From Clostridia bacterium (GTDB lineage: Bacteria; Bacillota; Clostridia; Oscillospirales; CAG-272): 64,000 nucleotides of DNA. The notes under the pieces are model-generated. The model searched no databases. It saw nothing but the letters and a program-made list of their open reading frames with translations, and was not told the DNA's origin. Location: assembly GCA_017410065.1 (NCBI GenBank), contig JAFQRL010000032.1:1027-65026 (forward strand), given 5' to 3'. The position numbers and the translations under genes were made by a program. Below are positions 1,960 to 58,310 of this stretch, one piece after another (within the stretch, counting starts at the first letter, position 1; every line of letters begins with the position of its first letter).

Positions 1960-3924
1960 ATGCTTAAAATAAATAAGCTTATATCCGCCTCCGCGGTTGA
2001 CTACGCCGCCGAGGAATTGAAAAAATACCTTCGTATGATGATGCCCGAGGGAGGCGACGTTGAGATCGCCTACGACCCCGAGGCAAAGTGTGGCTTCCGT
2101 CTCGGACTTATGCAGGAGCTCGGACTTGATATTTCCGACGCCGAGGACGCAGAGCTTGACGATATTTTATATATCGACTGCGATAAGGAAGGCGGCATCA
2201 TCGCGGGAGACAACCCTCGCTCGGTGCTTCTCGCGGTTTATGAATACCTCCGTCAGATGGGCTGCCGTTGGCTTATGCCGGGCGTGGACGGCGAATATAT
2301 CCCGATGAAGGATATCGAGCCTGTGAAATACCGCCACAAGCCATCTATGAGATACAGAGGCTGGTGCAACGAGGGCACCGAATTTCAGCAGTGTATGCTT
2401 GATGCTATCGAGCTTGCTCCAAAGCTCGGCCTCAACGTATTTATGCTTGAATTCAGAATTCCCTCGGGCTACTACACCCGCTATTACGAGCACAAATTCA
2501 ACGAAAACAACCGCCCTCCCGAGCCTATCACCACCGAGCAGATAATTCGCTGGAAGGTACAGTGCGAGGCAGAAATACAGAAGCGCGGTCTAGAGTTCCA
2601 TAACATCGGCCACGGCTTCACCATCGACCCCTTCAAGATCCCCGGCACCGAGCAGTATCAGATCAAGGTGGACGACAGCATCATTCCCGAGGAAACCAAA
2701 AAGCATCTTGCGCTTTTTGAGGGCAAGCGCGGCTTTATGCACGGAAGCATTATCAACACCAACTTCTGTATGTCAAGCGAGGAGGCGAGGAGGATAGTCG
2801 TCTCCGACGTGGTCGACTACGCCGAGCATCATTCAAACACCGACTATCTTCACGTCTGGCTCTCGGACGGACAGAACTGCCATTGCGAGTGCGCCGAGTG
2901 CGCGAAGATGACCCCCTCCGATTGGTATATGGTGCTGATGAACGAGATAGACGAGGCACTCACCGCAAAGGGACTTCCCACCCGAATCGTGTTTATTGCC
3001 TACGTTGACTCCACCTGGGCACCCGAAAAGATCAGGATCAAAAACCCCGAAAGATTTGCCCTTCTTATTGCGCCCATCACACGCACCTACACCGAGACTC
3101 TCCCAGAGAAGAAGTCGGATATCGTCCTTCGCCCCTACGAAAGAAACAAGCTGACCTTCCCGAGAAGCCTTGAGGAATACCTCGCGTATTTCGATAAGTG
3201 GAAGGAGGTCTGGAGCGGCTCAAATATTACCTATGAATACCACTTCTGGCGTCAGCACTTCTATGAGGTCTCGGGCATCCTTCTCGCTCGCCGTATAAAC
3301 GAGGACGTTAAATGCTATATAGAAAACGGTCTTTCGGGAATCATCGAGGACGCATCCCAGCGCGCCTTCTTCCCCACGGGTCTTGCCTTCTACACCTACG
3401 CAAGATCTATGTTTGACGCAAGCCTCACCTCCGAGGAGCTTGAGGAGGAGTTCTTCTCTGCCGCCTTCGGCAAGGATTGGAAGCTTTTCAGAGATTATCT
3501 TCTTGAGCTTTCCAAAGCCATCCCCTATACCTACACCTCTCAAAGATTCAATCTTCAGAGCAAGACCTCACCCTATTACCGCCCCGACCTTGTTCCCACC
3601 ATAAAGAGCACTCACGAGGTGATCGAGCGCGGCAGAGCACTTATCAAGGAGCATTACGACTCTGATATCAGAGTGCAGACGGTTGCGGTTAGAGTGCTTG
3701 AAGCCCACACGATTTATGCGGAAAGCCTTGCTCTCGCTCTTGAGGCAAAGGCTGTTGGCGACGATGATCGCGCAAGCGAGCTTTTCGTTGAAATGATGGA
3801 TAAGATGGGCAAGCTTGAAGCAAAGATCGAAAGATACTACGACTTCACTCAATGCCGCTTCGCGCTTCAGCAGATCTTCAATTCCAAAACCGTAAAGCCT
3901 CAAAACGAGATACAGGACAACTGA
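1960..3924 (+). CDS. DUF4838-like putative glycoside hydrolase, paralog 2
   Basis: 654-aa ORF with RBS gaaaggag 8 nt upstream of the ATG. Carries the HCECAEC (CxCxxC) motif and a TIM-barrel-like RYRGWCNEG/HNIGHG core. The DUF4838 assignment is from memory of the family motif. Confidence 0.85.
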   Translation: MLKINKLISASAVDYAAEELKKYLRMMMPEGGDVEIAYDPEAKCGFRLGLMQELGLDISDAEDAELDDILYIDCDKEGGIIAGDNPRSVLLAVYEYLRQMGCRWLMPGVDGEYIPMKDIEPVKYRHKPSMRYRGWCNEGTEFQQCMLDAIELAPKLGLNVFMLEFRIPSGYYTRYYEHKFNENNRPPEPITTEQIIRWKVQCEAEIQKRGLEFHNIGHGFTIDPFKIPGTEQYQIKVDDSIIPEETKKHLALFEGKRGFMHGSIINTNFCMSSEEARRIVVSDVVDYAEHHSNTDYLHVWLSDGQNCHCECAECAKMTPSDWYMVLMNEIDEALTAKGLPTRIVFIAYVDSTWAPEKIRIKNPERFALLIAPITRTYTETLPEKKSDIVLRPYERNKLTFPRSLEEYLAYFDKWKEVWSGSNITYEYHFWRQHFYEVSGILLARRINEDVKCYIENGLSGIIEDASQRAFFPTGLAFYTYARSMFDASLTSEELEEEFFSAAFGKDWKLFRDYLLELSKAIPYTYTSQRFNLQSKTSPYYRPDLVPTIKSTHEVIERGRALIKEHYDSDIRVQTVAVRVLEAHTIYAESLALALEAKAVGDDDRASELFVEMMDKMGKLEAKIERYYDFTQCRFALQQIFNSKTVKPQNEIQDN

Positions 3925-4104
3925 TAGCATATCCTTAATATCCCCACAGATCTCAAAGCATTGTCTATCACCAATATTATTGCAAAGCACCCAAAAATCG
4001 GCAAAATGCAAAGCTATATTTACATATTTGCAAAATTTGCGATATGGTGCGATAGATAAATCGCCGAATAAACGGCAAAGCGCAAAAGAAATAAAGGAGT
4101 TTAT

Positions 4105-6060
4105 ATGCTCAAAATTAATAAACTCATTTCGGCCTCTCCCATAGATTTTGCGGCAGAGGAATTAAAAAAATATCTTCGCATGATGATGCCCGAGGGCGGC
4201 GACATTGAGATCGCCTACGACCCCGAGGCAAAGAGCGGCTTTCGCCTTGGACTTATGCAGGACCTCGGACTTGATATTTCCGACGCCGAGGACACAGAGC
4301 TTGACGATATTCTCTATATCGACTGCGATAAGGAGGGCGGCATCATCGCGGGCTCAAACCCTCGCTCGGTGCTCCTCGCGGTCTACGAATACCTTCGCCA
4401 AAACGGTTGCCGTTGGCTTATGCCGGGCGTGGACGGTGAATATATCCCGATGAAGGATATAGAGCCTGTGAAATACCGCCACAAGCCCTCTATGAGATAC
4501 AGAGGCTGGTGCAACGAAGGCGCGGAATATCAGCAGTCTATGCTTGAAACCATAGATTTTTCTCCCAAGGTCGGAAACAACGTCTATATGATGGAGTTTA
4601 AGGTGCCGCCGTATTACCGCAACTACTACGGTCATTACCAAAACGAAGAAAACCGCGCCTCTGAGCACGTCACCGACAGACAGATAGTTCAGTGGAAGCG
4701 GCAATGCGAGGCAGAGATCGCAAAGCGCGGTCTAGAGTTCCACGATATCGGCCACGGCTTCAACATAGATCCCTTCGGCATACGTTCCGCGGTGGGCTGG
4801 TCTTCGGTTGACGAGTCTGCCATCACAGACGAGCAAAGGCGTCATCTTGCTATGATCAACGGCAAGCGCGGCTTGTATTTCGGCAAGCCAACAAACACGA
4901 ACTTCTGTATGTCAAATCCCGATTCCCGCAGAATAGTTACGCAATACGTTGCCGACTATGCCGAAGCTCACAGCAATATAGATTATCTCCACGTTTGGCT
5001 TGCAGACGCATACCACAATCATTGCGAATGCGCCGAGTGCCGAAAGAAAACTCCCTCGGATTGGTATATGGTTTTAATGAATGATATCGACAAAGCACTT
5101 GAGGAGCGCAACCTCCAAACTCGCATAGTCTTTATCGTGTACGTGGATACGACCTGGGCACCGATCACCGAAAGAATAAAAAATCCCAAAAGATTTTCAA
5201 TACTTCTCGCCCCCATTTCAAGAAGCTATCTCGAAACGCTCCCCGAGGGCGACCCGAAGCCCGAGATCAAGCCCTTTGTTCTTAACAAAACTCCCCTGCC
5301 CGCAACTCTTGCGGAATATTTCGCCCATTTTGCAGGCTGGCGTGAATTCTGGCACGGCTCGGCTTTCGCCTATGAATATCACTTCTGGTGGCACCTCGTC
5401 TCGGACGTTGGAGGAATTTCTCTTTCAAGAAGGATAAGCGAGGATATCAGAGCATACGAGGATCACAAGGTGAACGGAATAGTTGAGGACGGCACCCAGC
5501 GTGCCTTCTTCCCCACAGGTCTTGTGTTCTACACCTACGCGCGAACTCTTTTCGACGCCTCCCTCTCCCCCGAGGACGTCGCAAAGGAATATTTCTCCGC
5601 GGCATTCGGCGAGGACGGCGAGCTCTTCCGCTCCTACCTTGAGAAGATCGGAGACCTGTTTGACGTTAAATATATGGAGGGCAAGCTCTCCGCAAACGAA
5701 GAAATCTGCGCTTTCTATAACCCCGCTATGTCTGATAAGCTTGCCTCGGCAGAGAAGCTTTTCGCCGAGGGCGAGGAGCTTATAAAAAGCCATTACAATT
5801 CGGACTGTCGCGTGAGAACGGTTTCCGTCCGCTTGCTTGAATTCCACCTTGAATATTGCAGAGCTCTTGCAAAAATTCTGGAGCGCAAGGCGGTGGGAGA
5901 CGACGGCGGCGCAAGCGAGCTTCTTAATAAATTCAGGTGCGAGCTGGGTCGCCGCGAGGCGGAATATCAGCTCTACTACGACCACAACCTGCATTTCAAC
6001 AGAATAAGAAGGATCGTCGAGTTTACAAAAACCAACCGCACAGATCATACTCAAATTTAA
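4105..6060 (+). CDS. DUF4838-like putative glycoside hydrolase, paralog 3
   Basis: 651-aa ORF with RBS aaaggag. Same motif set as paralog 2, and the N-terminal 90 aa are nearly identical. Confidence 0.85.
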   Translation: MLKINKLISASPIDFAAEELKKYLRMMMPEGGDIEIAYDPEAKSGFRLGLMQDLGLDISDAEDTELDDILYIDCDKEGGIIAGSNPRSVLLAVYEYLRQNGCRWLMPGVDGEYIPMKDIEPVKYRHKPSMRYRGWCNEGAEYQQSMLETIDFSPKVGNNVYMMEFKVPPYYRNYYGHYQNEENRASEHVTDRQIVQWKRQCEAEIAKRGLEFHDIGHGFNIDPFGIRSAVGWSSVDESAITDEQRRHLAMINGKRGLYFGKPTNTNFCMSNPDSRRIVTQYVADYAEAHSNIDYLHVWLADAYHNHCECAECRKKTPSDWYMVLMNDIDKALEERNLQTRIVFIVYVDTTWAPITERIKNPKRFSILLAPISRSYLETLPEGDPKPEIKPFVLNKTPLPATLAEYFAHFAGWREFWHGSAFAYEYHFWWHLVSDVGGISLSRRISEDIRAYEDHKVNGIVEDGTQRAFFPTGLVFYTYARTLFDASLSPEDVAKEYFSAAFGEDGELFRSYLEKIGDLFDVKYMEGKLSANEEICAFYNPAMSDKLASAEKLFAEGEELIKSHYNSDCRVRTVSVRLLEFHLEYCRALAKILERKAVGDDGGASELLNKFRCELGRREAEYQLYYDHNLHFNRIRRIVEFTKTNRTDHTQI

Positions 6061-6133
6061 TATCGCGGCAAAGCGGCGTTGAATTCAGCAGTTCGCCGGT
6101 CGTACCGACGCTCGGGTCAGGAGAATTCTTAAA

Positions 6134-6253
6134 ATGCTTATAATCAATAAACTAATATCCACCTCCGCGGTAGATTACGCCGCCGAGGAATTGAAAAAAT
6201 ACCTTCGTATGATGATGCCCGAGGGCGGCGACATAAAGATCGCCTCGGTTTAA
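6134..6253 (+). pseudogene. Truncated N-terminal relic of a DUF4838-like paralog (39 codons then TAA)
   Basis: Encodes MLIINKLISTSAVDYAAEELKKYLRMMMPEGGDIKIASV*. It is a nucleotide-level copy of the first ~110 nt of the paralogs. The 5' half is closest to the 1960 copy. The 3' half (atgatgcccgagggcggcgacataaagatc) is identical to the 6343 copy. Confidence 0.8.
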
Positions 6254-6342
6254 GCAAAACAGCGGTATCCCCCTGTGCCGAGCAGTCGGCTTAATAAAAA
6301 ACTAAAATATTAAAAAACACATAAAGAAAGCAGGTAAAGGCA

Positions 6343-8301
6343 ATGCTTAAAATCAACAAGATCACATCCTCAAACGTGGTTGACTACGCGGCAGAGGAGC
6401 TTAAGAAGTATCTCCGAATGATGATGCCCGAGGGCGGCGACATAAAGATCACCTACGCCCCCGAGGCACTTGACGGCTTCCGTCTCGGTCTTATGCAGGA
6501 CTTCGGACTTGACGTCTCCGACGTCAGCGACCCCGAGCTTGACGACCTTCTCTATATCGACTGCGACAAGAACGGCGGTATCATTGCAGGCGGCAACCCT
6601 CGCTCGGTGCTTCTCGCGGTTTACGAGTACCTCCGTCAAAACGGCTGTATATGGCTCTTCCCCGGTGTGGACGGCGAGTATATCCCTATGAAGGAAAACG
6701 AGCCCGTTAAATATCGCTTTGCCCCCTCCTGCCGTTACAGAGGACAGTGCAACGAGGGCGCAGAGTTCCAGCAGTCTATGATGGCATCTATCGAGTTTAT
6801 GCCCAAGATCGGTATGAACACCTTTATGATCGAATTCAAGAACCCTCACACCTATTACAGCTGGTATTACGACCACACAAGAAACGCAAGCCGCCCTGCC
6901 GAGCCCATCTCCTTTGACACCGCTCTCCAATGGAAGAGAATGTGCGAGACCGAGCTTGCAAAGCGCGGAATGATGTTCCACGATATCGGCCACGGCTTCA
7001 ACGTCGATCCCTTCGGCATCGACTCCACCCACGCCTGGAACAAGGTTGACGACAGCCTCATTCCCGACGATCAGAGAAAATACCTTGCCGAGATCGCGGG
7101 TAAGCGCAAGTTCTATCGCGATCAGCCCATCAACACCCAGTTCTGTATGTCCAACCCCGAGGCGCGCACGATGGTTGCGAAATACGTTGCCGAGTACGCC
7201 GAAAAGCACTCCAATATCGACTATCTCCACGTTTGGCTCGGAGACGACGCAAACAACCATTGCGAGTGCGAGGAGTGCCGCAAGAAGCTCCCCTCCGACT
7301 GGTATATACTTCTTATGAACGAGATCGACGAGGAGCTCACCAAGAAGAATCTCGCCACCCGCGTGGTGTTTATCGTTTACATAGACACCGTTTGGGCACC
7401 CCTCGTTCACAAGATCGAAAAGCCCGAAAGATTCTCCGCAATGATAGCTCCCATTCAGCGCAGCTACACCAAAACTCTCCCCGGGCTCGCAGAGGACTTC
7501 AAGCTTGAGCCCTTCAATCTCAATAAAAACGTCTTCCCGAGGGATCTTTCCATCTTCCTTGAATATTATAAGGAGTGGCAAAAGATGTGGAAGGGCGCGA
7601 CCTTCTGCTATGAATATCACTTCTGGCGCCATCAGGCTTGCGAGCTTTCGGGTACGGTGCTCGCAAAGCGCATAATCGAGGACGTGCGCGCATATAAGGC
7701 TAATGATATCAACGGCCTTATTGAGGACGGCTCCCAGCGCTCCTACTTCCCCAACGGCTTCGCCTTCTACACCTATGCAAGAATACTCTTTGATACCTCC
7801 CTCACCTACGAGCAGATCGCAGAGGAATATTATTCTCACGCATACGGCGCAGATTGGAAGATATTCCTTGATTACTTTGAGAGGCTCGGCGAGGCACTTG
7901 ACCAGGGCTATCTTGAGGGCGAAAAATCCTCCAACCCCGAGATCAGCGCATATTACAGGCCCGAGTATCTTGAAAACCTTAACAGAGCAGAGGCTATTCT
8001 CGCAGAGGGCGAGGAGCTCGTTAAGAGCCACTATAACTCCGACGAGAGAGTGCAGACCGTCTCCGTGAGACTTATGGAAAAGCACATCGAATATTGCCGC
8101 GGCTTCATCGAGATCTTCCGCCACAAGGCTATCGGAGACGACGACGGCGCAAGAAAGATCTTCGTTGACTTCTGCAACAGCTTCGGTGCTCACGAGCCCG
8201 AGATCGAGCTTTGGTACGACCACCTTATCTACACCTCCAACCTTCGCCGCATCATCGAGTTCCACCCAAGCCAGAAGCCTAACGAGGTAACTCAGCTTTG
8301 A
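6343..8301 (+). CDS. DUF4838-like putative glycoside hydrolase, paralog 4
   Basis: 652-aa ORF with the same motif set (HCECEEC) but more diverged than paralogs 1-3. Followed by a strong terminator. Confidence 0.85.
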   Translation: MLKINKITSSNVVDYAAEELKKYLRMMMPEGGDIKITYAPEALDGFRLGLMQDFGLDVSDVSDPELDDLLYIDCDKNGGIIAGGNPRSVLLAVYEYLRQNGCIWLFPGVDGEYIPMKENEPVKYRFAPSCRYRGQCNEGAEFQQSMMASIEFMPKIGMNTFMIEFKNPHTYYSWYYDHTRNASRPAEPISFDTALQWKRMCETELAKRGMMFHDIGHGFNVDPFGIDSTHAWNKVDDSLIPDDQRKYLAEIAGKRKFYRDQPINTQFCMSNPEARTMVAKYVAEYAEKHSNIDYLHVWLGDDANNHCECEECRKKLPSDWYILLMNEIDEELTKKNLATRVVFIVYIDTVWAPLVHKIEKPERFSAMIAPIQRSYTKTLPGLAEDFKLEPFNLNKNVFPRDLSIFLEYYKEWQKMWKGATFCYEYHFWRHQACELSGTVLAKRIIEDVRAYKANDINGLIEDGSQRSYFPNGFAFYTYARILFDTSLTYEQIAEEYYSHAYGADWKIFLDYFERLGEALDQGYLEGEKSSNPEISAYYRPEYLENLNRAEAILAEGEELVKSHYNSDERVQTVSVRLMEKHIEYCRGFIEIFRHKAIGDDDGARKIFVDFCNSFGAHEPEIELWYDHLIYTSNLRRIIEFHPSQKPNEVTQL

Positions 8302-20934: not shown

Positions 20935-22269
20935 TTACTTCCCCGCTCTTGCTTTTGCCCGAGATATAAAGGGTATTACCGCAAACATAAGCAGAGTGAC
21001 GAGCGCACCCACGAGGAATATTTCGGGAGCGGGGATATATTCGGTGGTCATAATATCCGCGCCCGCATCCTGAAGCTTTACGCCCATAGCCTTGTTTATG
21101 CCGTTTCCGATCGCGGGGCCCGCAAGCATAGGTATAAGCACGCTGAACACCATCCTCACACCCTGAAGCTTACCCACGGCACCCTCGGGCGTGTAGTCTC
21201 TCACGGTGGAGCCGCAAAGCGCGCTGACGAAGATATATCCGCAGATCATCACGAAGCCGAATATACCGAAAACGATAAGTGCGGCGGTCTTATTCGAAGG
21301 AGGCGCAAAGTACATACCGAAAAGCCCTGCCGCCATAATCGCCGAGGCAACGTAAAGAAGCTTCGTCTTGTCCATCTTATCCGAGAGTCTGCCGAGGAAG
21401 ACGTTTATCACCGCGCCAAGAACGATAGCCACGCCGAACACCACGCTGTATTCGATCTCGGTGAAGCCGAGATAGGTCTTCATATAAATGATGAGATAGG
21501 GCATAAAGATCTGGCAAGCCACGCCGTAGATAAGCACGGCAATAAAGGTGACATAAAGAGGAAGATTATTCTTCACCACGGAGGGCTTGAAGCCGTAGAA
21601 GATCTCTCTGAAGCTTCCCGACCGCCGAAGGGTGGGGCTGTCCTTGATAATGAAGATACCGAGAAGTCCCGAAAGGGAGATGATAACGCCGAGCCCGATG
21701 AATACCGCCCGATAGCTTGTCAAGGAAACGAGGATACCGAAGCCGCCCGCCACCGCAAGCATTGCGATAAGAGGAAGTATGGAAATCACGCCCTCGACCG
21801 TGCCGCGGAATGAGGGTCTTGTGTTGTCCGTGACCCAGGCGTTGAAGGCGGCATCGTTTGCCGTCGAGCCAAAGAGGGTCATCACGCAGTCGCCAACGAC
21901 CAAAAGCGCGAGAGTGAGCGTTACCGCCTGTACGCCCTGCGTATTGAATATAGCTCCCACAAGCTCTGTGCTTGTGCAACCGAAGAGCGCGACCGTCACG
22001 CCCCATATAAGATATCCGTAGGATATGAGAGTGCGCCTGTTTCCAAGCTTATCCGAGAGCACTCCCGCGATCAGAGTGACCGCCGTTGCCGTCACGCCGC
22101 TGAGCTGTACCATAAGGGTGATAGCATCAAGATTCGGCGCGACCGTGTCGAATATAAAGAGATTGAAATACATATTCTCCACCGACCAGGCAAGCTGACC
22201 TATCGTGCCGAACAGTATAAGGATCAACCAGCTTTTTCTGCCGAATACCGTTTTTTCGTTTCCGTTCAT
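20935..22269 (-). CDS. MFS/GPH-family glycoside-cation symporter
   Basis: 444 aa with about 12 TM segments. The N-terminus WLILILFGTIGQLAWSVENMYFNLF is typical of GPH-like sugar transporters. Confidence 0.75.
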   Translation of the reverse strand: MNGNEKTVFGRKSWLILILFGTIGQLAWSVENMYFNLFIFDTVAPNLDAITLMVQLSGVTATAVTLIAGVLSDKLGNRRTLISYGYLIWGVTVALFGCTSTELVGAIFNTQGVQAVTLTLALLVVGDCVMTLFGSTANDAAFNAWVTDNTRPSFRGTVEGVISILPLIAMLAVAGGFGILVSLTSYRAVFIGLGVIISLSGLLGIFIIKDSPTLRRSGSFREIFYGFKPSVVKNNLPLYVTFIAVLIYGVACQIFMPYLIIYMKTYLGFTEIEYSVVFGVAIVLGAVINVFLGRLSDKMDKTKLLYVASAIMAAGLFGMYFAPPSNKTAALIVFGIFGFVMICGYIFVSALCGSTVRDYTPEGAVGKLQGVRMVFSVLIPMLAGPAIGNGINKAMGVKLQDAGADIMTTEYIPAPEIFLVGALVTLLMFAVIPFISRAKARAGK

Positions 22270-22286
22270 TTTCCGTTTTCCTTACC

Positions 22287-22363
22287 TTCCATTTTCAATT
22301 TTCCACTTTCCATTTTCAATTTTCCATTTTCAACTTTCCATTTTCAATTTTCCATTTTCAACT
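22287..22363. repeat. 14-bp tandem repeat (ttccattttcaaNt, about 5.5 units)
   Basis: Units start at 22287, 22308, 22322, 22336 and 22350. The array spans the last codons and the stop (22330-22332) of the AraC gene, and ends 18 nt from the MFS start codon. Confidence 0.9.
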
Positions 22364-23172
22364 TTCAACTTCCTCCACTCTCTCGGCGAGCAGCCTTCCC
22401 TTGCGCGGAAGGCTGTGCCAAAGGCGGATACCGAGCCGAAGCCCGAGGCCTTCGCGATCCTTCCAACCGTCCAATCGGTGGAGGAAAGAAGTCTTTTTGC
22501 CTGCTTCACTCTCAGGGAGGTCAGGTAGCCGAGCACCGTTCTGCCCGTGTATTCCTTGAAAAGTCGGCAGAGATAAAATTCGCTGAGGTAAAACCTCTCG
22601 GAGAGGGAGGTGAGGCTTATCTGCTCGGTATAGTGTGTGTCGATATACTTCAGTATATCCGCAACTCTGTCAAGCGTCGGGGTGGCAACCGTGGTGCGGC
22701 TGGCAATATTTTCGCAAGAGAGAGTCGCATCGAGAAGCCCGAGAACGGCGGCATAGCTGCCAAGCCCCGCGTCCTCTCGCGTGACCCTTCCGATCATTTC
22801 ATCTATAAGCCTCGAAATCCTCTCTCGCGCCTCTCCCTCGGGCCTTGCGATGAAAAGCTCGCAGTCGGGCTCCGCTCCGCAGGGGAAATGTGCGGCAGGA
22901 AGGGTTATAAGCAGTCTCGCGTAACCGCCCCCCGCATCAAGAGTTCGGTGCTCCGTGTCGGGTGCGAGCAAAAAGGCGTCTCCCGCCTTAAGATGATAAA
23001 AGGCGTCCTTAACGAAAAGGTATCTGTCGCCCTCGGTGAGCAGATAAAATTCGTATTTATCGTGAGCCTCACAGCGCGCCATATTGTTGAAGGCTATCCT
23101 CTCATAGCCAACCTTCACGTCGTATCCCTTCTCGGAAAATCCTATAACCGTTTCTCCTCCCCCCTCTCTCAT
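22330..23172 (-). CDS. AraC-family transcriptional regulator (cupin + HTH)
   Basis: N-terminal cupin sensor and C-terminal HTH (YLSEFYLCRLFKEYTGRTVLGYLTSLRVKQAKRLL). Confidence 0.85.
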   Translation of the reverse strand: MREGGGETVIGFSEKGYDVKVGYERIAFNNMARCEAHDKYEFYLLTEGDRYLFVKDAFYHLKAGDAFLLAPDTEHRTLDAGGGYARLLITLPAAHFPCGAEPDCELFIARPEGEARERISRLIDEMIGRVTREDAGLGSYAAVLGLLDATLSCENIASRTTVATPTLDRVADILKYIDTHYTEQISLTSLSERFYLSEFYLCRLFKEYTGRTVLGYLTSLRVKQAKRLLSSTDWTVGRIAKASGFGSVSAFGTAFRAREGCSPREWRKLKVENGKLKMES

Positions 23173-35068: not shown

Positions 35069-36022
35069 ATGAAAACCTCTTTGATAGTCCACCCCGAGGA
35101 GCTAACAAGGCGATATATAAAAAAGCTTTATAGCTCAGGCGCAGATATTATCGGTATACACCCCACAGGCGGCGAGACCGCAAAGCATTCCCTCGATCAC
35201 CTTCTTGAAATGCTTGAAGGTGACGAGCTTCCCTCGCTTCTCCGCTATGCAAGCGAGCTCGGGCTTGAGATAGAATACGAGCTACACTCGGCAAGCTACC
35301 TTCTCCCCCGAGAGCTTTTTACCGAACACCCCGAATACTTCAGAATGAACGATAAGGGCGAGAGGGTGTCCGATTTTAATTTCTGTGTGTCCTCGGAGGA
35401 AGCCCTTGAAATTTATTCGAGCCGAGCCGCGGCACTTGCAGAAAAGCTCTACCTCTCGCGCCCATACTACTATCTTTGGATGGACGATAAAAAGGGAGCG
35501 TTTTGCCAATGCGAGCTATGCAAAAGCCTCACCCCCTCGGATCAGCAATTAAAGGTTGCAAATCGGGTGGTCGAGAAGTTGAGGGCAAAAAACCCGAAGG
35601 CACATCTTGCGTATCTCGCTTATTTCGAGTGCGTTGAACCGCCAAAGGCAGTTGCACGGGATCAAGGTATTTTCCTTGAATACGCACCCTTTGAAAAATA
35701 CACAGCCAAGGGCGCAGACGCCCCCGAGCTTATAAAGCGAGAGCGCGAGGCTCTCCTTCCGCTCATAAAGCTTTTCGGCAAGAAAAACTTCAAGGTGCTT
35801 GAATATTGGTATGATAATTCAATGCTCTCCGAATGGAAGAAGCCGCCAAAGAAATTCACCCTGGACATTGAGGCTATGCGGCAGGACGTGTCCGATTTTC
35901 GCGCTATCGGAGCAGATTTTCTCGCATCGTTCGCCTGCTTCCTCGGCGAGGATTACGAAGCCCTCTACGGTGAGGTGGATCTCTCCGATCTCCCACGGCT
36001 TGCAAAATCCAAAGCTGAATAA
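35069..36022 (+). CDS. Short DUF4838-like protein (catalytic-core-only paralog)
   Basis: 317 aa. NFCVSSEEA..YLWMDDKKGAFCQCELC..TPSDQQ aligns with the NFCMSSEEA..HVWLSDGQNCHCECAEC..TPSDWY core of the 650-aa paralogs. Confidence 0.75.
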   Translation: MKTSLIVHPEELTRRYIKKLYSSGADIIGIHPTGGETAKHSLDHLLEMLEGDELPSLLRYASELGLEIEYELHSASYLLPRELFTEHPEYFRMNDKGERVSDFNFCVSSEEALEIYSSRAAALAEKLYLSRPYYYLWMDDKKGAFCQCELCKSLTPSDQQLKVANRVVEKLRAKNPKAHLAYLAYFECVEPPKAVARDQGIFLEYAPFEKYTAKGADAPELIKREREALLPLIKLFGKKNFKVLEYWYDNSMLSEWKKPPKKFTLDIEAMRQDVSDFRAIGADFLASFACFLGEDYEALYGEVDLSDLPRLAKSKAE

Positions 36023-37316: not shown

Positions 37317-39368
37317 TTATTTTATTCTTCTCAACATTTGCGCGGGGCTCTTTCCCGTGGGCAGGGTTACCTTTCCGCCCTCGGTGATATACCGCTCGCC
37401 GCTGAATATTTCCTCGTATTCGCCGTCCTCGGGAAGCGAAACAGCGGTGACACCGTCAGCTGTATTATAAACTCCTATAAGCGCATCGTTTACGTAAACA
37501 GGCACACCGCCCTCGGCGTAAATATGCACTCCCGCGAGCCTTGCTATCTCCCGCAGCACGTCGGCGTGAATATGACCAAGCGAGCTATAATAAACCGTGT
37601 GATCCCCACGGTCAACCGACCCGAGCGAGCATTGCCCCGATTGCTTGAATTCGCCAAGGCGCAAGACACTCTCATCGTCAATAAAGAAGGTGGGTGACTT
37701 CGCCTCGCCATATCCGTACTCGGTGCCGAAGCCCATCGACCGTGCATCGTCAACCTCAAGCCGCAAAAGCCTCATCCCGAGAAGCTTCTCGACTCTTGCA
37801 AGCGAAACTCCCCTATCGGATATATAATCGGGAGCACCAACAAAAAGCGTTGATCTGCCGCCCGACATAACGCGCTCCTTAATAATGCGCCTTTGCTCAT
37901 CGGTAAGGCTGTATGCATTCAGGAAAATGAAGAGCTTGTATTTTTCTATATCGATAGAAGGAAGATCACTCATCGAATAAAGATCGTATGGCGCGCCGAG
38001 CCTTCCAAGCCCCTCGCGTTGCTCGGTGATAAGCTCGTCGTTCATTCCCGAGCATTTATTCACGTAGTATAGCGATTCGCAATCGGCAAGCACGCATATC
38101 TCCGAGGCGGAATTCATCTCAAGGCTATCAAGCCTCTCCGAAAGCAGCCTCAGCCTCCGCACCTCGTCCATCAATCTCTCGTCGTAATACCAGCCCTCAA
38201 GCATATCAAACCACCAGGTGCCGCACCGCTTTGCAAGCCTGAGCATCATCTCGCGGCGCATACCCTGAACGGTCTTTTCGTACGTCTGGAGCGTATCAAG
38301 CCGCTTGAATTTATGTATCAGCTGATAAAGAGCATCCATTGTGCTCTCGTCTCCGCATATTCTGCGAGTGTTGCTCTCCAGAGTGGGAACGGTGCATGTG
38401 AGATTATCAAAGGATGCAAAGTAGACCTTCCCCGAAAGCTCAAGAGAATCGTCCAGCGTCATATGCGCGCCGAAATCCTCGTATTGCCTGAAGCGATATG
38501 AGGAGGGCGTGGCAATAAGATCTATATCGGGAGAGCCGTTCACTCTGTCAAGATCAAGATGCCCCGCATTCCACATTCTCTCCCCCGAAAGCTCCATTAT
38601 ATAGCCGAAGAAAACGCCGAGAAGCTTATTGTGGCAAAGCACCTCTTGCGCCTCGCGGCAGAAATAAAGCACAGTGTCCGATATGAGCCTTGCGTGAAAA
38701 CGCCTGTACTCAATAACGTCTCTATCCTCAGTGGGATCAAGAAAGATCTCCCGAGACGGACGGATCAGCCGCTTCCCCGTGGGTATCTCGGCTTTTTGGT
38801 CTTCGGTATATCGGCGGTAAGCCGCAAGCTTTGTGGGATGGCTCGCCTCATAATCAAAATCGCTGAACCATTCGTTTGTGTGCCCTCCAACGAGATAATA
38901 GCCGAGTATCCTATCACCCCACCTATCCTCCGCGTGGCGAAGCAGAGCCTTAAGAAACTCTGCCGTATCACGCCTGTAATCCTCATCGGCGGCAACCTGC
39001 GAAAGATGGGTGAAGGAGCTTGGAAGCCCCTCGTGCTCGCGAAGCCACCAATCCCTCGTGTCAAGCTGAATATTCACGAAAACGTAGCCCTCGGGAGCAT
39101 TTTTCTCGAAGAACTCCATTTGTCTGTCGAAGACCTCAAAGCGATACTCCCCATCTCCGACCCACGGCTCGCCGTAGAGCGAATAGAGCATATTTATGCC
39201 CGAGCGCATACCCGAGCAATATACGTGAAATATTCGGACGCCCGCGGCATAAAAATCTCCGACGTTATTTTCCGTCGGACGGAAGGATTTGAAGGCAAGC
39301 GAATCCACCGTCTTGCCGTCAACGGAAATTTTATTCCGTCCACCGTCTCTCACAATTTTCACTATCAT
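37317..39368 (-). CDS. Uncharacterised glycoside-hydrolase-like protein inside the rha operon
   Basis: 683 aa. GGHTNEW (a clan GH-A-like NE acid/base motif) and a GH42-like overall layout. The start is uncertain (ATG 39368 with a weak RBS, or TTG 39401). Confidence 0.55.
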   Translation of the reverse strand: MIVKIVRDGGRNKISVDGKTVDSLAFKSFRPTENNVGDFYAAGVRIFHVYCSGMRSGINMLYSLYGEPWVGDGEYRFEVFDRQMEFFEKNAPEGYVFVNIQLDTRDWWLREHEGLPSSFTHLSQVAADEDYRRDTAEFLKALLRHAEDRWGDRILGYYLVGGHTNEWFSDFDYEASHPTKLAAYRRYTEDQKAEIPTGKRLIRPSREIFLDPTEDRDVIEYRRFHARLISDTVLYFCREAQEVLCHNKLLGVFFGYIMELSGERMWNAGHLDLDRVNGSPDIDLIATPSSYRFRQYEDFGAHMTLDDSLELSGKVYFASFDNLTCTVPTLESNTRRICGDESTMDALYQLIHKFKRLDTLQTYEKTVQGMRREMMLRLAKRCGTWWFDMLEGWYYDERLMDEVRRLRLLSERLDSLEMNSASEICVLADCESLYYVNKCSGMNDELITEQREGLGRLGAPYDLYSMSDLPSIDIEKYKLFIFLNAYSLTDEQRRIIKERVMSGGRSTLFVGAPDYISDRGVSLARVEKLLGMRLLRLEVDDARSMGFGTEYGYGEAKSPTFFIDDESVLRLGEFKQSGQCSLGSVDRGDHTVYYSSLGHIHADVLREIARLAGVHIYAEGGVPVYVNDALIGVYNTADGVTAVSLPEDGEYEEIFSGERYITEGGKVTLPTGKSPAQMLRRIK

Positions 39369-39396
39369 ACGAATAAAGCATCCTTTTTGCTTTATT

Positions 39397-39414
39397 TGCA
39401 AACATATATTTGCA
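39397..39414. promoter_or_regulatory. Operator-like palindrome TGCAAA-N6-TTTGCA (second copy)
   Basis: Lies in the rhaA-GH intercistronic spacer. The block 39395-39420 matches 32795-32820. Confidence 0.5.
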
Positions 39415-39431: not shown

Positions 39432-40676
39432 TTATCTTTTAAGCTGAACTTCAGCCTCGTATTTTCTCATTTCCTCTATCCATTCAGCACCCAGAGGAGC
39501 ACCGCACACCTCAAGATATCTATCCCACACAGCGCCGAAGGGCATAGTTTTAAGCTCCTCGGTAAGGGCGAACATAGAGGTGAAATCAGCCTTGTTCTGG
39601 TAGTCCGCAAGGAGTGCGTGAGGTGTGAGGAGTGCCGAAAGGAGAGCCTTTTGCACGTTTCTCATACCGATCACCCAAGCGGCGAGACGGTTGATGGAAG
39701 CATCAAAATAATCAAGAGCGATAAACACTCTGTCAAGAGCACCGCAACGAACTATCTCCTTTGCGATCTCCTTCGTTTCATCGTCGAATGCAACGACGTG
39801 GTCGGAATCCCATCTCACGCCCCTTGTTATATGAAGGGCGATCTTCTCATTGAAGGCGAGAAGCGCGGGGATCTTATCCGAGACCACCTCGGTGGGATGA
39901 TAATGTCCGTTGTCCATAAGAGGGGTTATACCCTTCCTTGTGGAATAGGAAAGGCAGAACTCGGCAGAGCCAACGGTGTAGGACTCAAGCCCGATGCCGA
40001 AGACCTTGGATTCAAGCGTGATATAAACGAGGCTCTTGTCATAGGGCTCGGAGAGCATCTCGTCAAGGGACTCCTTGAAGCGAAGCCTCGGGCTATATCT
40101 GTCCGCGGGGACCTCCTTATATCCGTCGGGGATCCATACGTTGACCACGCAGGGCACGCCTGTTTCCTTAGCGAAATATTCCGCAATTCGGATGCACGCC
40201 TTGCCGTGCCTTATCCAATAATCTCTCACGTCCTTATCGGGCGAGGAGAGAGTGAGATTATCCTTGACCATAGGATGGCTGAAGAAGGTGGGGTTAAAAT
40301 CAAGACCAACACCAAGCTCTCTCGCAAGCTCCACCCAGGGAGCAAAATGCTTTGGCTCAATAGCATCACGACCCACAGCCTCTCCCTCGGCAAAGATGGC
40401 GTAGCAGGCGTGAACATTTATCTTTTTAGTACCGGGGATAAGAGAAAACGCCTTTCTCATATCCGCCATAAGCTCCTCGGGGCTCGTCGCTCTGCCGGGA
40501 TAATTTCCCGTGGTCTGAATTCCGCCCGAAAGTGCCTCCTTGCTATCAAAGCCCATAACGTCGTCGCCCTGCCAGCAATGCATTGCCACAGGCACACTGC
40601 GAAGTCTCTCTATCGCCGCATCGGTGTCTATGCCGTACTTTGCATATTCCACCCTCGCAAGCTCGTATGCGTTCAT
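39432..40676 (-). CDS. rhaA: L-rhamnose isomerase
   Basis: MHCWQGDDV, GGIQTTGNYPG and RWDSDHVV are collinear with E. coli RhaA. Start at ATG 40676 (aaaggaag RBS), not the upstream Met. Confidence 0.92.
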   Translation of the reverse strand: MNAYELARVEYAKYGIDTDAAIERLRSVPVAMHCWQGDDVMGFDSKEALSGGIQTTGNYPGRATSPEELMADMRKAFSLIPGTKKINVHACYAIFAEGEAVGRDAIEPKHFAPWVELARELGVGLDFNPTFFSHPMVKDNLTLSSPDKDVRDYWIRHGKACIRIAEYFAKETGVPCVVNVWIPDGYKEVPADRYSPRLRFKESLDEMLSEPYDKSLVYITLESKVFGIGLESYTVGSAEFCLSYSTRKGITPLMDNGHYHPTEVVSDKIPALLAFNEKIALHITRGVRWDSDHVVAFDDETKEIAKEIVRCGALDRVFIALDYFDASINRLAAWVIGMRNVQKALLSALLTPHALLADYQNKADFTSMFALTEELKTMPFGAVWDRYLEVCGAPLGAEWIEEMRKYEAEVQLKR

Positions 40677-40702
40677 ATTCTTTCTTCCTTTCAAAATCAA
40701 AT

Positions 40703-40834
40703 CAGCCGCAGGCTGCATGTAATCCGCGAAGCGGTATATCATCACGGCACAGCCGTGTATATCATCAGCCCTTCGGGCTGTATATCATCAACACGCAAGT
40801 GTTGCATATCATCCGCCATCGGCGGTATATCATC
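40703..40834 (-). repeat. Array of 6 GC mini-hairpins separated by (G)TATATCATC
   Basis: Hairpins CAGCCgcaGGCTG, CCGCgaaGCGG, ACGGCacaGCCGT, AGCCCttcGGGCT, AACACgcaaGTGTT and CGCCatcGGCG. Five spacers match gtatatcatc, with a 21-24 bp period. Confidence 0.9.
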
Positions 40835-42197
40835 AGCTCCACCCCGGAGCGACCTCGTCCGTCTCGTCCGCCCTCTCGTCAAGCTCGCCGCAACACTTCA
40901 TCTGCACCATAAGATTGCCGATAGCCGTTGCCTCAATAGGCATTGCCACAACTCGCCTGCCTGTGTACCTTGCAGTCAGATCGTTGAGATAACCGTTCTT
41001 CGCGCCGCCGCCAACTATGTATATCTCGGAGTATTCCTTTTTTACGTTTTCCTCAAGATCGCGGATCGCATCCTCATAGCAGGATGCAAGGCTGTGGTAA
41101 GCGCTATTGAAATAGTCCGCCGCGCACTTGGGAGTTGCCTTGCCGTGAGCGGCAAGATATTCGCTGATAGCAGCCTTCATTGATTCGGGAGCCATAAAGG
41201 CGGGGTCGTTAACGTCAAAGAGCTCGTTGAAGCTGCTTTTTCTTGCCATCTCGGCGATCTCGCCGTAGCCCGTCTCGGGGCAAAGCTCGGACCTCAAAGA
41301 TTGAATTATCCACATTCCCGTGATATTCTTAAGGTAGGTGAAATAGCCAACACCGCCCTCGTTTGAGTAGCCCGAAAGTCGGCTTCGCTCATCGGTGAGA
41401 GCCTCGTCAAGCTTAACTCCCAGCAAGGACCAGGTTCCCGACGAAATATACGGAGCATCCGACTCCATCTCAATTGCCTCGACCGCGCTTGCGGTGTCGT
41501 GAGTGGCACAAAGCACAACGTCAAGGTCGCCTCCGACCTCGCGCGCTACCTCCGCAGAAAGCCTTCCAACCAACTCGCCGGGCATATAAATGGGTGCGAT
41601 AAGCGACCTCGGGAAACCAAGCCTCTCGAAAAGCCCCTCGTCAAGCTGAAGGGTGTTCACGTTCACAAGCGCGCAGGTGGATGCGTTGGTGAATTCCTTC
41701 TTTTTCACGCCTGTGAGCTTATACATAAGATATTCGGGTATCATAAGAAAATCGGTCGCGCCGTCAAGTCTGCCACAAAGCTTATCCGCATAAAGCTGAT
41801 ATACCGTGTTGAAGCTCTGGAACTGTGTTCCCGTTATAGAGAAAAGCTCCGCAGGGGGAACGATCTCGTGAACGAGCCTGATGGGCTCCTCGGTCCTTGA
41901 ATCTCTGTATGCATAGGTGGGAAGGATCTCCTCCTCGCCGCGCATAAGAACGTAGTCAACGCCCCAGGTGTCGATAGAAAGGCTCTCGATTTTCGGATAT
42001 TCGGCAAACGCCTTGGCAATTCCCGCCTTGACCTCGGAGAAAAGCCTCTCGGTGTTCCACACAAGATGACCCTCCACCGTGTCCATTCCGTTTGCAAAAC
42101 GGTAGACCTCGCGAGTGCAGATCTCGCCGTCCTCCACCCAGCCAACAATGTGGCGTCCGCTTGATGCTCCAATGTCGATCGCAAGATAGTATTTCAT
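40833..42197 (-). CDS. rhaB: Rhamnulokinase
   Basis: FGGY-kinase N-terminus YLAIDIGASSGR plus RhaB-like length and context. ggagg RBS. Confidence 0.88.
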   Translation of the reverse strand: MKYYLAIDIGASSGRHIVGWVEDGEICTREVYRFANGMDTVEGHLVWNTERLFSEVKAGIAKAFAEYPKIESLSIDTWGVDYVLMRGEEEILPTYAYRDSRTEEPIRLVHEIVPPAELFSITGTQFQSFNTVYQLYADKLCGRLDGATDFLMIPEYLMYKLTGVKKKEFTNASTCALVNVNTLQLDEGLFERLGFPRSLIAPIYMPGELVGRLSAEVAREVGGDLDVVLCATHDTASAVEAIEMESDAPYISSGTWSLLGVKLDEALTDERSRLSGYSNEGGVGYFTYLKNITGMWIIQSLRSELCPETGYGEIAEMARKSSFNELFDVNDPAFMAPESMKAAISEYLAAHGKATPKCAADYFNSAYHSLASCYEDAIRDLEENVKKEYSEIYIVGGGAKNGYLNDLTARYTGRRVVAMPIEATAIGNLMVQMKCCGELDERADETDEVAPGWS

Positions 42198-51186: not shown

Positions 51187-51292
51187 CATAACGCGGTGGC
51201 TTGATGCTCCCCGAGCATCAAGCAGTTATGATTGCCCAAAGGGCAAGTTATGAGTTATGAGATGCTCCGCATCGTTATGAACGGCAAAGCCG
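51187..51292. repeat. Array of GC hairpins separated by GTTATGA
   Basis: CTTGATGCTCcccGAGCATCAAG, TTGCCCaaaGGGCAA, GATGCtccGCATC and CGGCaaaGCCG. GTTATGA occurs at 51225, 51247, 51254 and 51274, with an inverted CATAAC at 51187. Confidence 0.85.
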
Positions 51293-51368
51293 CGTTTAAA
51301 CAACATATTTCGTCTGCTGCGCCACCCGTTTTCAAATAATTCAGAAACAGTCTCCAAACAAGCTCCAT
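51255..51368 (-). CDS. Hypothetical 37-aa ORF divergent from the XRE gene
   Basis: AAGGAG 6 nt before the ATG. Encodes MELVWRLFLNYLKTGGAADEICCLNAALPFITMRSIS*. Driven by the consensus promoter at 51414-51442. The 3' third overlaps the hairpin array, so coding status is uncertain. Confidence 0.35.
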   Translation of the reverse strand: MELVWRLFLNYLKTGGAADEICCLNAALPFITMRSIS

Positions 51369-51413: not shown

Positions 51414-51442
51414 ATTATAACCCCCATAATATTAATTGTCAA
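51414..51442 (-). promoter_or_regulatory. Perfect consensus sigma-A promoter (TTGACA-17-TATAAT) firing away from the XRE gene
   Basis: The minus strand reads TTGACAattaatattatgggggtTATAAT. The -35 box lies 15 nt upstream of the XRE ATG on the opposite strand. The palindrome GGGGATataATCCCC follows at about +5 to +20. Confidence 0.75.
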
Positions 51443-51457
51443 GATGGAGGTTAAAAA

Positions 51458-51664
51458 ATGATTGTTTTTGATAAGCTTTGGGATACTATGAAAAGAAAAG
51501 GCTTCAGCACCTACAAGCTTCGCGAGGAGTGCGGAATTGATAGCAAGACCGTTCGAAGGCTGAAGGCTAACGACAACATTGAAAGCAAAACTCTGAACAA
51601 GCTTTGCGCAGCATTGGACTGCAAGATTGAGGATATTATGGAGTATATCCCAGACAAAGTCTAG
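51458..51664 (+). CDS. XRE/Cro-C1-type helix-turn-helix regulator (68 aa)
   Basis: KGFSTYKLREECGIDSKTVRRLKANDNIESKTLNKLCAALDCKIEDIMEY is a typical short HTH_XRE protein. ggagg RBS. Confidence 0.85.
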   Translation: MIVFDKLWDTMKRKGFSTYKLREECGIDSKTVRRLKANDNIESKTLNKLCAALDCKIEDIMEYIPDKV

Positions 51665-57884: not shown

Positions 57885-58093
57885 ATTCCGTCTCCGTAAG
57901 ACTGCCCGCGGTGCGGCAAAGCCACCGCCCGAGAGCTGTTTTTATATGTATTATCTTACCATATTAATGCTTTTAATTCAAGTAAATATCGCATAAAATA
58001 TATTAATTTTTTGATAATAACCAATAAATGGGGCGACCTCCGCGCAAGGCAAAGGTCGCCATCTCTTATAAACGGGAAAGGGCAGAGGCAAAA

Positions 58094-58310
58094 GTGATGT
58101 TACTCGCTTCGCTCATAATGATGCTTTTGCTTACGCAAAAATGATGTTATTCGCTTCGCTCATAATGATGTTGCTCCCTACGGTCGCGGGTGATATGATG
58201 CTTGCCCACTGTGCCGCAGGCACAACATCATTGCCGTAGGCTACATCATTGCCGCAGGCTACATCATTAGGCGAAGCCGACATCACTTGCCCATAAGGGC
58301 AAACATCGTT
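58094..58310. repeat. Inverted array: five (A)ATGATGTT motifs then five AACATCATT motifs, interleaved with mini-hairpins
   Basis: Forward motifs at 58094, 58117, 58140, 58164 and 58194. Reverse motifs at 58224, 58243, 58261, 58280 and 58302. Hairpins GCCgtaGGC, GCCgcaGGC, GGCgaaGCC, TGCCCataaGGGCA and TTTTGCttacGCAAAA. Confidence 0.85.

Follow-up and report, generated by a model that had tools for sequence, protein, structure and literature searches.

Variable-number hairpin-linker arrays in gut Clostridia: the array between rhaB and rhaA and its dispersed relatives

The spacer between the genes rhaB (rhamnulokinase) and rhaA (L-rhamnose isomerase) in an uncultured Clostridia metagenome-assembled genome (MAG) from ruminant gut is filled with an array of mini-hairpins, whose stems are variable and whose linkers are nearly invariant. 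We studied it in a stretch of 64,000 nucleotides (nt), here referred to as "the window". The locus raises the question of whether such an array is a regulatory element of the rhamnose (rha) operon or a repeat that happens to lie there. In our reading, to which we assign a probability of about 0.6, it is a structured minisatellite, dispersed and prone to recombination, which is carried along in the rha mRNA as a passive passenger and is not a selected rhamnose regulator. For rhamnose metabolism it is probably incidental.

The rhaB-rhaA spacer is 156 nt long and contains six perfect GC-rich hairpins, and a seventh one lies in the 3' end of rhaB. Between the hairpins stands a linker of 8-10 nt, which on the sense strand reads (G)ATGATATA(C); all the stems differ and are 4-6 bp long, and the loops are of 3-4 nt. 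In sense order, the TGA of rhaB lies in TGATGATATA, and then come five hairpins split by ATGATAT(A/G), ATTACATG, the sixth hairpin and ATTTGATTTTGAAAGGAAGAAAGAAT-ATG. A preliminary description of the locus had given the same anatomy, with six hairpins, a near-invariant linker and a linker over the rhaB stop, to which the seventh hairpin is now added. It had also placed the end of the array about 25 nt before the ribosome-binding site of rhaA. The array does end close to that site, but the distance is about 12 nt (to AAGGAAG), and it is the rhaA ATG that lies 26 nt from the terminal hairpin. The elements are as follows, with L numbers standing for loci in other assemblies.

40836..40850, minus strand: hairpin H0, GCTCC-ggggt-GGAGC, in the last rhaB codons (APGWS); kept in L002, L003 and L088, absent in L084
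40835-40833, minus strand: rhaB stop codon TGA, overlapping linker 1
40826..40835, minus strand: linker 1, TGATGATATA, which holds the rhaB stop codon
40813..40825, minus strand: hairpin 1, CCGCC-gat-GGCGG
40805..40812, minus strand: linker 2, ATGATATG, the one-mismatch copy
40789..40804, minus strand: hairpin 2, CAACAC-ttgc-GTGTTG
40781..40788, minus strand: linker 3, ATGATATA
40766..40780, minus strand: hairpin 3, CAGCCC-gaa-GGGCTG
40758..40765, minus strand: linker 4, ATGATATA
40743..40757, minus strand: hairpin 4, CACGGC-tgt-GCCGTG
40735..40742, minus strand: linker 5, ATGATATA
40724..40734, minus strand: hairpin 5, CCGC-ttc-GCGG; an identical unit occurs in L002, L003, L088 and L094
40716..40723, minus strand: linker 6, ATTACATG, seemingly degenerate, yet the standard ATTACATA linker type elsewhere
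40703..40715, minus strand: terminal hairpin 6, CAGCC-tgc-GGCTG, a weak terminator-like site together with its tail
40693..40702, minus strand: T-rich tail ATTTGATTTT after hairpin 6; this array end is conserved in all strains

On the minus strand the linker 10-mer GATGATATAC occurs exactly at 40734, 40757, 40780 and 40825 and with one mismatch at 40804, which makes five copies in 101 nt at spacings of 23, 23, 24 and 21 nt. Over both strands of the window 2.7 matches with at most one mismatch were expected and 17 were observed in total, a number reached by 0 of 100 shuffles. Compared with shuffles, the fold of the array gave z = -3.45 and -4.24 as RNA, and z = -7.4 and -8.25 with DNA parameters; the minimum-energy fold of the DNA consists of exactly seven local hairpins, on either strand. 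Moreover, when five related arrays were cut solely at their linker positions, 43 of the 45 inter-linker segments formed perfect stems of 4 bp or more anchored at the segment ends; of shuffled segments, 4.5% did so. This cut avoids circularity and gives the figure to be used, since the units of our alignment A2 were chosen in advance as perfect hairpins and its 100% pairing follows from that choice. Neighbouring units did not significantly avoid identical stems (P 0.12-0.46).

The array changes rapidly within the species. It is identical to that of the window in L001 and variant in L002, L003 and L088, which are independent assemblies of the same species (RhaA cluster >90%). The spacers measure 156, 160, 247 and 360 nt although identity over the 400 nt to either side is 97.5-98%: L003 holds about 6 units in 160 nt, L088 about 11 in 247 nt and L002 about 15 in 360 nt, and across the strains of the species the number of units runs from about 5 to 15. 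Thus tandem unit number differs among close strains, as in a minisatellite or variable-number tandem repeat (VNTR). Unit order is reshuffled between strains and units are duplicated. L088 holds a duplicated 4-unit block, and the L002 array looks like a 5' half of the window type fused to a 3' half of the L088 type. The strains use a small repertoire of hairpins in differing orders (CCGCC, CAACAC, CAGCCC, CACGGC, CCGC, CTGCGC, CAAGGC and others), and related stems differ through paired changes, for example CTGCGC...GCGCAG versus CCGTGC...GCACGG. The linkers also vary by strain (ATGATATA, ATTCCATA, ATTACATA, ATGCCATA and AGGACATA).

The recombination hotspot proposed in the preliminary description agrees with these differences in unit number and order between flanks of about 98% identity, and with a family that is multi-copy in the source communities. 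The array is neither unique to this locus nor invariant among relatives, two of the findings that had been named in advance as speaking against it: units occur at other loci, and the strains vary. Two of the earlier statements hold in part. No two stems of the array are the same, as had been stated, but all belong to a limited repertoire that other arrays and loci share; and the distinction from a tandem duplication is half correct, as multi-unit blocks do duplicate in tandem (L088, L084). An assembly artefact was ruled out by the presence of the array in four independent assemblies. Coding potential was likewise rejected, because the period (21-25 nt) is no multiple of three and other strains have lost the ATG of the linker.

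Comparison with relatives gave matched empty and filled sites. In the sister species (L084-L087), whose RhaA is 85% identical, the rhaB-rhaA spacer is 40 nt long and without an array, and is thus an empty site. At the metY leader the situation is reversed: L084 has an array of about 370 nt, with ATGATATA, ATGAGATA and similar linkers, between a T-box terminator and the metY start, while the window has only one degenerate unit there. This metY array (within 4303-5010 of L084) comprises about 15 units with a 3-unit higher-order repeat, and it had no match in a plasmid database. Eighty further RhaA loci (at most 76% identical, 1.29 Mb) all lack an array close to rhaA; the locus of an Acutalibacteraceae MAG (L013) among them carries one at another place. 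The array arose or landed right after the rhaB stop, in this species only, and is a recent, strain-variable insertion. Because it is absent from the rha operon of the sister species, it is, as judged from these sequences, not a conserved rhamnose regulator.

The leader of the L084 metY gene (Cys_Met_Meta_PP) is T-box-like (RF00230, 62.3 bits, below the threshold of 93), and the array comes directly after its terminator.

Similar units are found far beyond the rha locus. Contigs of four gut metagenomes covered 40738-40805 to a depth of 400-890 compared with 3-9 on the flanks (50-150x), and many metagenome contig ends run into other "GTATATCATC + hairpin" contexts, that is, foreign junctions. 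The window itself contains three hairpin-linker arrays, of which only the rha array matches our model R1; the other two are missed owing to their different linkers. A pattern search for periodic hairpin-linker arrays, of the kind that the preliminary description had advised, yielded about 10 true relatives in contig scans. These scans used GTATNNNATC x3 (metagenome and viral contigs) and GATGATAT x3 (viral contigs) and mostly returned ordinary tandem repeats; the true relatives recovered after a hairpin filter include L094, L101, L104, L134, L155, L182, L189 and the viral contig L384. Family members with identical units also occur in L013 and L407-L419. Identical units shared by unrelated loci include ATTACATA-CCGCttcGCGG-ATTACATA, CACGGC...GCCGTG, CCGCAAC...GTTGCGG and CAATGCttcGCATTG.

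Oriented by their linkers, 83 units gave the consensus AT[G/T]NNATA, a directional, AT-rich linker of 8 nt with G and C at its sides, and after it a short, perfect GC-rich hairpin whose first base is C and whose last is G; the period ranges from 19 to 25 nt. Many arrays consist of two inverted halves with balanced arms (3-5 units each), and their linkers can pair over long range. The ATNNNATA orientation points to the start of a downstream gene in all eight cases that could be judged. From these matches, the rha array appears to be one local copy of a dispersed, fast-evolving family of structured mini-repeats in gut Clostridia (Oscillospirales-like MAGs).

The second array of the window (58090-58310) has two inverted halves, about five units of AATGATG(T/C)T (AATGATGT) and then about five of ACATCATT, and is located after the zupT stop (58367) and before a terminator-like hairpin (58060-58032); three other samples have contigs that end inside it. 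The third (51190-51295) has the linker GTTATGA (TCATAAC on the minus strand). A perfect sigma-70-like promoter (51442..51414, minus strand) and an open reading frame (ORF) of 37 codons starting at 51367 lead into it, and a small divergent ORF near it (51461-51660, plus strand) is, judged by eye, Xre-type helix-turn-helix-like. The array on the viral contig L384 (120-330, from IMG/VR) has TATATCAT/ATGATATA linkers and a terminal CCATTGC...GCAATGG-ATAAAAAA, and adjoins a protein of 1978 amino acids with an ART-PolyVal domain.

One genomic context recurs. The arrays of L094 (module at 2023-2620) and L182 (module at 3849-4408) lie directly 5' of PF05635 four-helix-bundle (Avd-like) genes that are 68% identical to each other. 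All 13 places fetched for the two PF05635 homologues (L407-L419; for example L407 1-764 and L417 2022-2860) contain at least part of one module; several of these contigs stop before the tRNA genes or inside the array, and most contigs with the four-helix-bundle gene are shorter than 2 kb and begin within the array or near it. The full module consists of tRNA genes, a terminator, TTTTTTAT-CCAATCC-gaa-GGATTGG, four units, the conserved centre TTCGGATTG, three inverted units and the four-helix-bundle gene. Its architecture is kept, and its stems differ between the two homologue groups or species.

The closest described relative in kind is the Gut-1 motif. No Rfam family reached its threshold in the window, and the best permissive match was Gut-1 (RF01706; 40712-40790, minus strand), with 19.3 bits (E 0.14) against a threshold of 50. 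The Gut-1 consensus comprises three mini-hairpins separated by (G)UGAAAU (Rfam RF01706), and its seed alignment, taken with flanks, has variable hairpins whose linker GUGAUAUU flips to AAUAUCAC and which are placed immediately behind terminators and tRNA genes (PMC2864571). The motif was found in human gut metagenomes by Weinberg et al. 2010, who regarded it as a likely non-coding RNA (PMC2864571); our search for later literature on Gut-1 found none in the library consulted. Among the related arrays, those of L189 scored 45.7 and 37 bits and that of L101 25.7 bits. The L189 contig bears both an array of ATGATATA type and a near-threshold Gut-1 array, and the two kinds are therefore linked.

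The rha array shares with Gut-1 a run of at least three mini-hairpins with variable, covarying stems, a conserved linker of the UGAAAU/UGAUAU type (the UGAUAU core being common to the (G)UGAAAU/GUGAUAUU linker and that of rha), and UUC/UUGC loops on the same strand. It differs in its linker, AUGAUAUA here and AUUCCAUA or similar in other strains, and in coming from ruminant gut, whereas Gut-1 is known only from gut metagenomes (human). Gut-1 was also described as a standalone small RNA (sRNA) of three hairpins, and not as a dispersed array of variable number. With regard to context, Gut-1 stands alone by terminators or tRNA genes and has inverted halves, while the rha array runs in one direction between two cistrons and is hypervariable from strain to strain. 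The Gut-1 context does fit the window array at 58090-58310 and those of L134, L155, L013 and L407; the inverted seed halves by terminators or tRNA genes are as in L134, L155 and L407. In behaviour, repetitive extragenic palindromes (REP) and their bacterial interspersed mosaic elements (BIME), or structured VNTRs, come closest.

A 7/14-nt tandem repeat, TTTTCCATTTTCAA, is present in about eight copies at 22253-22370 of the window, just 5' of a major facilitator superfamily (MFS) gene (20935-22269, minus strand), and a near-identical TTTTCCATTTTCAA repeat flanks two human-gut Gut-1 seed sequences (BAAY01013587.1, hgutS8_s8_175002).

The setting of the array within the operon is given by the following features.

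40833..42197, minus strand: rhaB, the 5' gene; best match TIGR02627 at 395.8 bits, under the cut-off of 527.95
39432..40676, minus strand: rhaA, the 3' gene; NF002203 at 623.8 bits
42239..42267, minus strand: promoter-like site TTGTAA-17-TATTAT with TG extension, 5' of rhaB; a consensus match only
40684..40690, minus strand: rhaA ribosome-binding site AAGGAAG, free of hairpins, read from the sequence

As the only promoter-like site found for rha in the promoter and terminator scan is the one 5' of rhaB, and as the scan contained no strong terminator between rhaB and rhaA, the array probably sits in the rha transcription unit and would be co-transcribed with both genes, as had been suggested before. 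In the terminator test only the hairpin 40715-40703 with ATTTGATTTT passed a lenient scan; its stem is 5 bp and its T-run is interrupted. No promoter-like site was called in the array, and we rejected the linkers as promoters (-10-like TATCAT or TGATATAC). No RNA run contained the window locus, and the single run available for L094 had coverage only over tRNA and rpiB.

A mechanism consistent with these observations can be outlined. The array would grow, shrink and be reshuffled through unequal recombination or slippage, with the conserved linkers in register, and multi-unit blocks like the duplicates seen in L088 and L084 would be duplicated in tandem on the way, with stems staying perfectly paired via changes on both sides. 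In the mRNA it would fold as independent hairpins, like beads on a string, and leave the rhaA ribosome-binding site free. Possible side effects are a barrier to 3' exonucleases for the rhaB segment, cleavage in the AU-rich single-stranded linkers between the hairpins, and a weak attenuating effect of the terminal hairpin and its U-rich tail ATTTGATTTT. Any effect of the present array on rha expression is probably incidental. Side effects on mRNA stability, termination and translation are reported for REP/BIME elements (PMC6006769). BIME-2 arrays have such effects too.

The loops are distributed very unevenly between the strands. Among 59 distinct hairpins, GNA triloops (18:2) and GNRA tetraloops (10:0) favour the strand complementary to the ATNNNATA orientation, which at rha is the antisense strand, i.e. 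the plus strand of the window. This loop-rich strand is probably the leading-strand template, because the GC skew of the plus strand is negative throughout the window. C-GNA-G mini-hairpins, of the d(GCGAAGC) type, are exceptionally stable in DNA.

With respect to other known systems, the array resembles REP, BIME and REPIN elements in being made of short extragenic palindromes that are multi-copy in the source communities and form arrays of varying copy number, in lying after stop codons, after terminators or inside operons, and in the existence of inverted pairs. The REP/BIME-like character proposed in the preliminary description thus applies to dispersal and copy-number variation, but not to canonical REP structure, and the role in mRNA stability or processing suggested with it gained no support. 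REP elements are defined by GT[AG]G 0-2 nt 5' of the hairpin foot, a basal stem of 7-20 nt and an element length of 21-65 nt (PMC6006769). In our arrays the tetranucleotide preceding the foot is (A/C)ATA or TCAT, depending on the strand, the stems are of 4-7 bp and the hairpins of 11-18 nt. Neighbouring palindromes differ, units are direct instead of alternating, and the host is a Firmicute and not a member of the Proteobacteria. No transposase, RAYT or Y1/HUH gene was found among the roughly 40 ORFs of the window or among the ORFs beside nine other arrays.

Intercistronic minisatellites of the MIRU type in Mycobacterium, reportedly described by Supply and co-workers in 1997, are another comparison. 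Like them, the array has tandem units in an operon, overlaps the upstream stop codon and varies in copy number by strain. MIRU units are 46-101 bp long, similar to one another and contain small ORFs, without a hairpin-plus-linker structure, whereas the array has a period of 21-25 nt and is non-coding. With CRISPR the array has in common a conserved short element alternating with variable segments, and a content that differs by strain. However, the repeat is of 8-10 nt and not of 23-50 nt, the "spacers" are palindromic and shared between loci, the window has neither cas domains nor a leader, and the family probably forms many small arrays per genome, with variable segments from a small repertoire; the earlier statement that this is not CRISPR is correct. 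TIGR arrays were considered together with CRISPR-like guide arrays. In TIGR arrays the conserved parts pair, but here it is the variable parts that pair and that are common to several loci, and guide arrays were rejected on this ground. A K-turn was rejected because the motif is not conserved among strains.

Could the array nevertheless be a selected cis-acting RNA module, acting on the stability or processing of the rhaB and rhaA segments or attenuating read-through into rhaA? We consider this unlikely. Its position inside the operon, the free ribosome-binding site, the terminator-like last hairpin with ATTTGATTTT, the stems kept perfect and the linker orientation toward a downstream gene start in 8/8 cases examined would all suit such a module, and for REP elements mRNA stabilisation, transcription termination and effects on translation have been reported (PMC6006769). 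Against such a module, the array is missing from the sister species and from 80 other rha operons and varies from about 5 to about 15 units within one species; in addition, the stable loops are on the antisense strand, and related arrays lie 5' of promoters or past terminators, outside mRNAs. Alternatively, the units could be single-stranded DNA repeats spread by a hairpin-specific enzyme (RAYT/IS200-like HUH or other) that recognises the linker and hairpin foot on the GNA/GNRA strand, so that the arrays would be its footprints or substrates. The strong strand bias of the C-GNA-G and C-GNRA-G loops, the exactly local hairpins formed by both strands with DNA parameters, presence/absence polymorphism at two loci, identical units at unrelated loci and the resemblance of inverted-half arrays to REPINs all point in this direction, and the guide of HUH enzymes is a tetranucleotide located 5' of a hairpin foot (PMC6006769). 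This origin is also unlikely, given that no Y1/HUH gene is found in the 64-kb window or beside the nine other arrays, that the GT[AG]G foot is lacking and the stems are shorter than those of described REPs, and that the loop-rich strand seems to be the leading-strand template while IS200/RAYT enzymes use the lagging-strand template.

A multimeric protein-binding platform, in which inert hairpins would space the single-stranded UGAUAUA linkers evenly so that they act as an RNA sponge or as a series of DNA sites, is quite improbable. It would account for a conserved linker next to a variable structured part, and for the conserved module that arrays form with PF05635 four-helix-bundle (Avd-like) genes. 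Sponge sRNAs of the CsrB/RsmZ type have many hairpins with a conserved GGA motif in the loops; they resemble the array in presenting a repeated short motif by hairpins on a string, but the array has variable loops and keeps its motif in the single-stranded linker. We know of no cognate protein for the array, and no partner protein is encoded near it at rha. Moreover, the linker drifts between strains at one locus (ATGATATA, ATTCCATA, ATGCCATA, AGGACATA), the period of 19 to 25 nt is without helical phasing, and the copy number is unconstrained. Hardly any credence is due to a chance pattern, an assembly artefact, a CRISPR-like array or a cluster of C/D-box sRNAs. The linker counts, hairpin segments and fold z-scores exclude chance, and the four independent assemblies and the short repeats with palindromic "spacers" and no cas speak against the artefact and CRISPR. 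The UGAUGA...CUGA strings give archaeal C/D-box sRNA matches that remain sub-threshold (at most 16 bits versus thresholds of 36-65), and they are lost in the strains with GATTCCATAC linkers.

Several points also weigh against the passive, recombination-prone minisatellite that we prefer. Co-transcription and any effect on the mRNA are both deduced from sequence features. Copies from other community members may contribute to the high metagenomic depth, and their share is not separable from that of this genome. No propagating enzyme was identified in the window or beside the nine other arrays. At the PF05635 module the architecture is conserved while the stems change, which looks functional rather than like junk. 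Finally, the loop asymmetry suggests that it is on the other strand that the structure is important, in the form of single-stranded DNA or of an antisense or read-through RNA. Stable antisense loops do not fit a structure selected in the rha mRNA and argue against an mRNA stabiliser.

Gut-1 has been in Rfam since 2010 as an orphan "sRNA", without host, context or function. The present locus and its relatives recast it as a wide family of hairpin-linker arrays that vary in unit number and occur in Clostridia of gut and rumen, with definable insertion sites (matched empty and filled in sister species), strain-level polymorphism, strand-asymmetric loops, and recurrence by tRNA operons and Avd-like four-helix-bundle genes. 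In practice, the arrays fragment metagenome assemblies and could act as strain markers. A more speculative idea, for which we see only a small chance, is that Gut-1-like arrays are the product or substrate of an undescribed strand-specific machinery for single-stranded nucleic acids in gut Firmicutes. It would read the 8-nt linker and the C-GNA-G/C-GNRA-G hairpin foot, and write, copy or move units to "safe" sites just after stops or terminators. The module of tRNA operon, terminator, array and PF05635 gene could be the home locus of such machinery or encode a partner protein. If the idea is true, the arrays would form a class of structured mobile repeats new to bacteria and different from both REP/RAYT and CRISPR.

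Some further features of the window may be mentioned. Directly 3' of rhaA, between it and a class II aldolase gene, an ORF of 694 amino acids (37317-39401, minus strand) is kept in all strains and in the sister species (683 amino acids); it has no match in Pfam or NCBIfam. The window as a whole can be classed as a glycan-utilisation region: its genes include those for fucosidase, GH88 and GH20 enzymes and for MFS transporters, and mobile-element genes are absent. Adjoining these genes are DUF4838 paralogues (regions 1960-8301 and 35069-36022): two scanned ORFs of about 650 amino acids (1960-3924 and 4105-6060), an ORF of 317 amino acids (35069-36022), and a further ORF (6343-8301) listed with them by its similar size and not on the basis of a domain scan.

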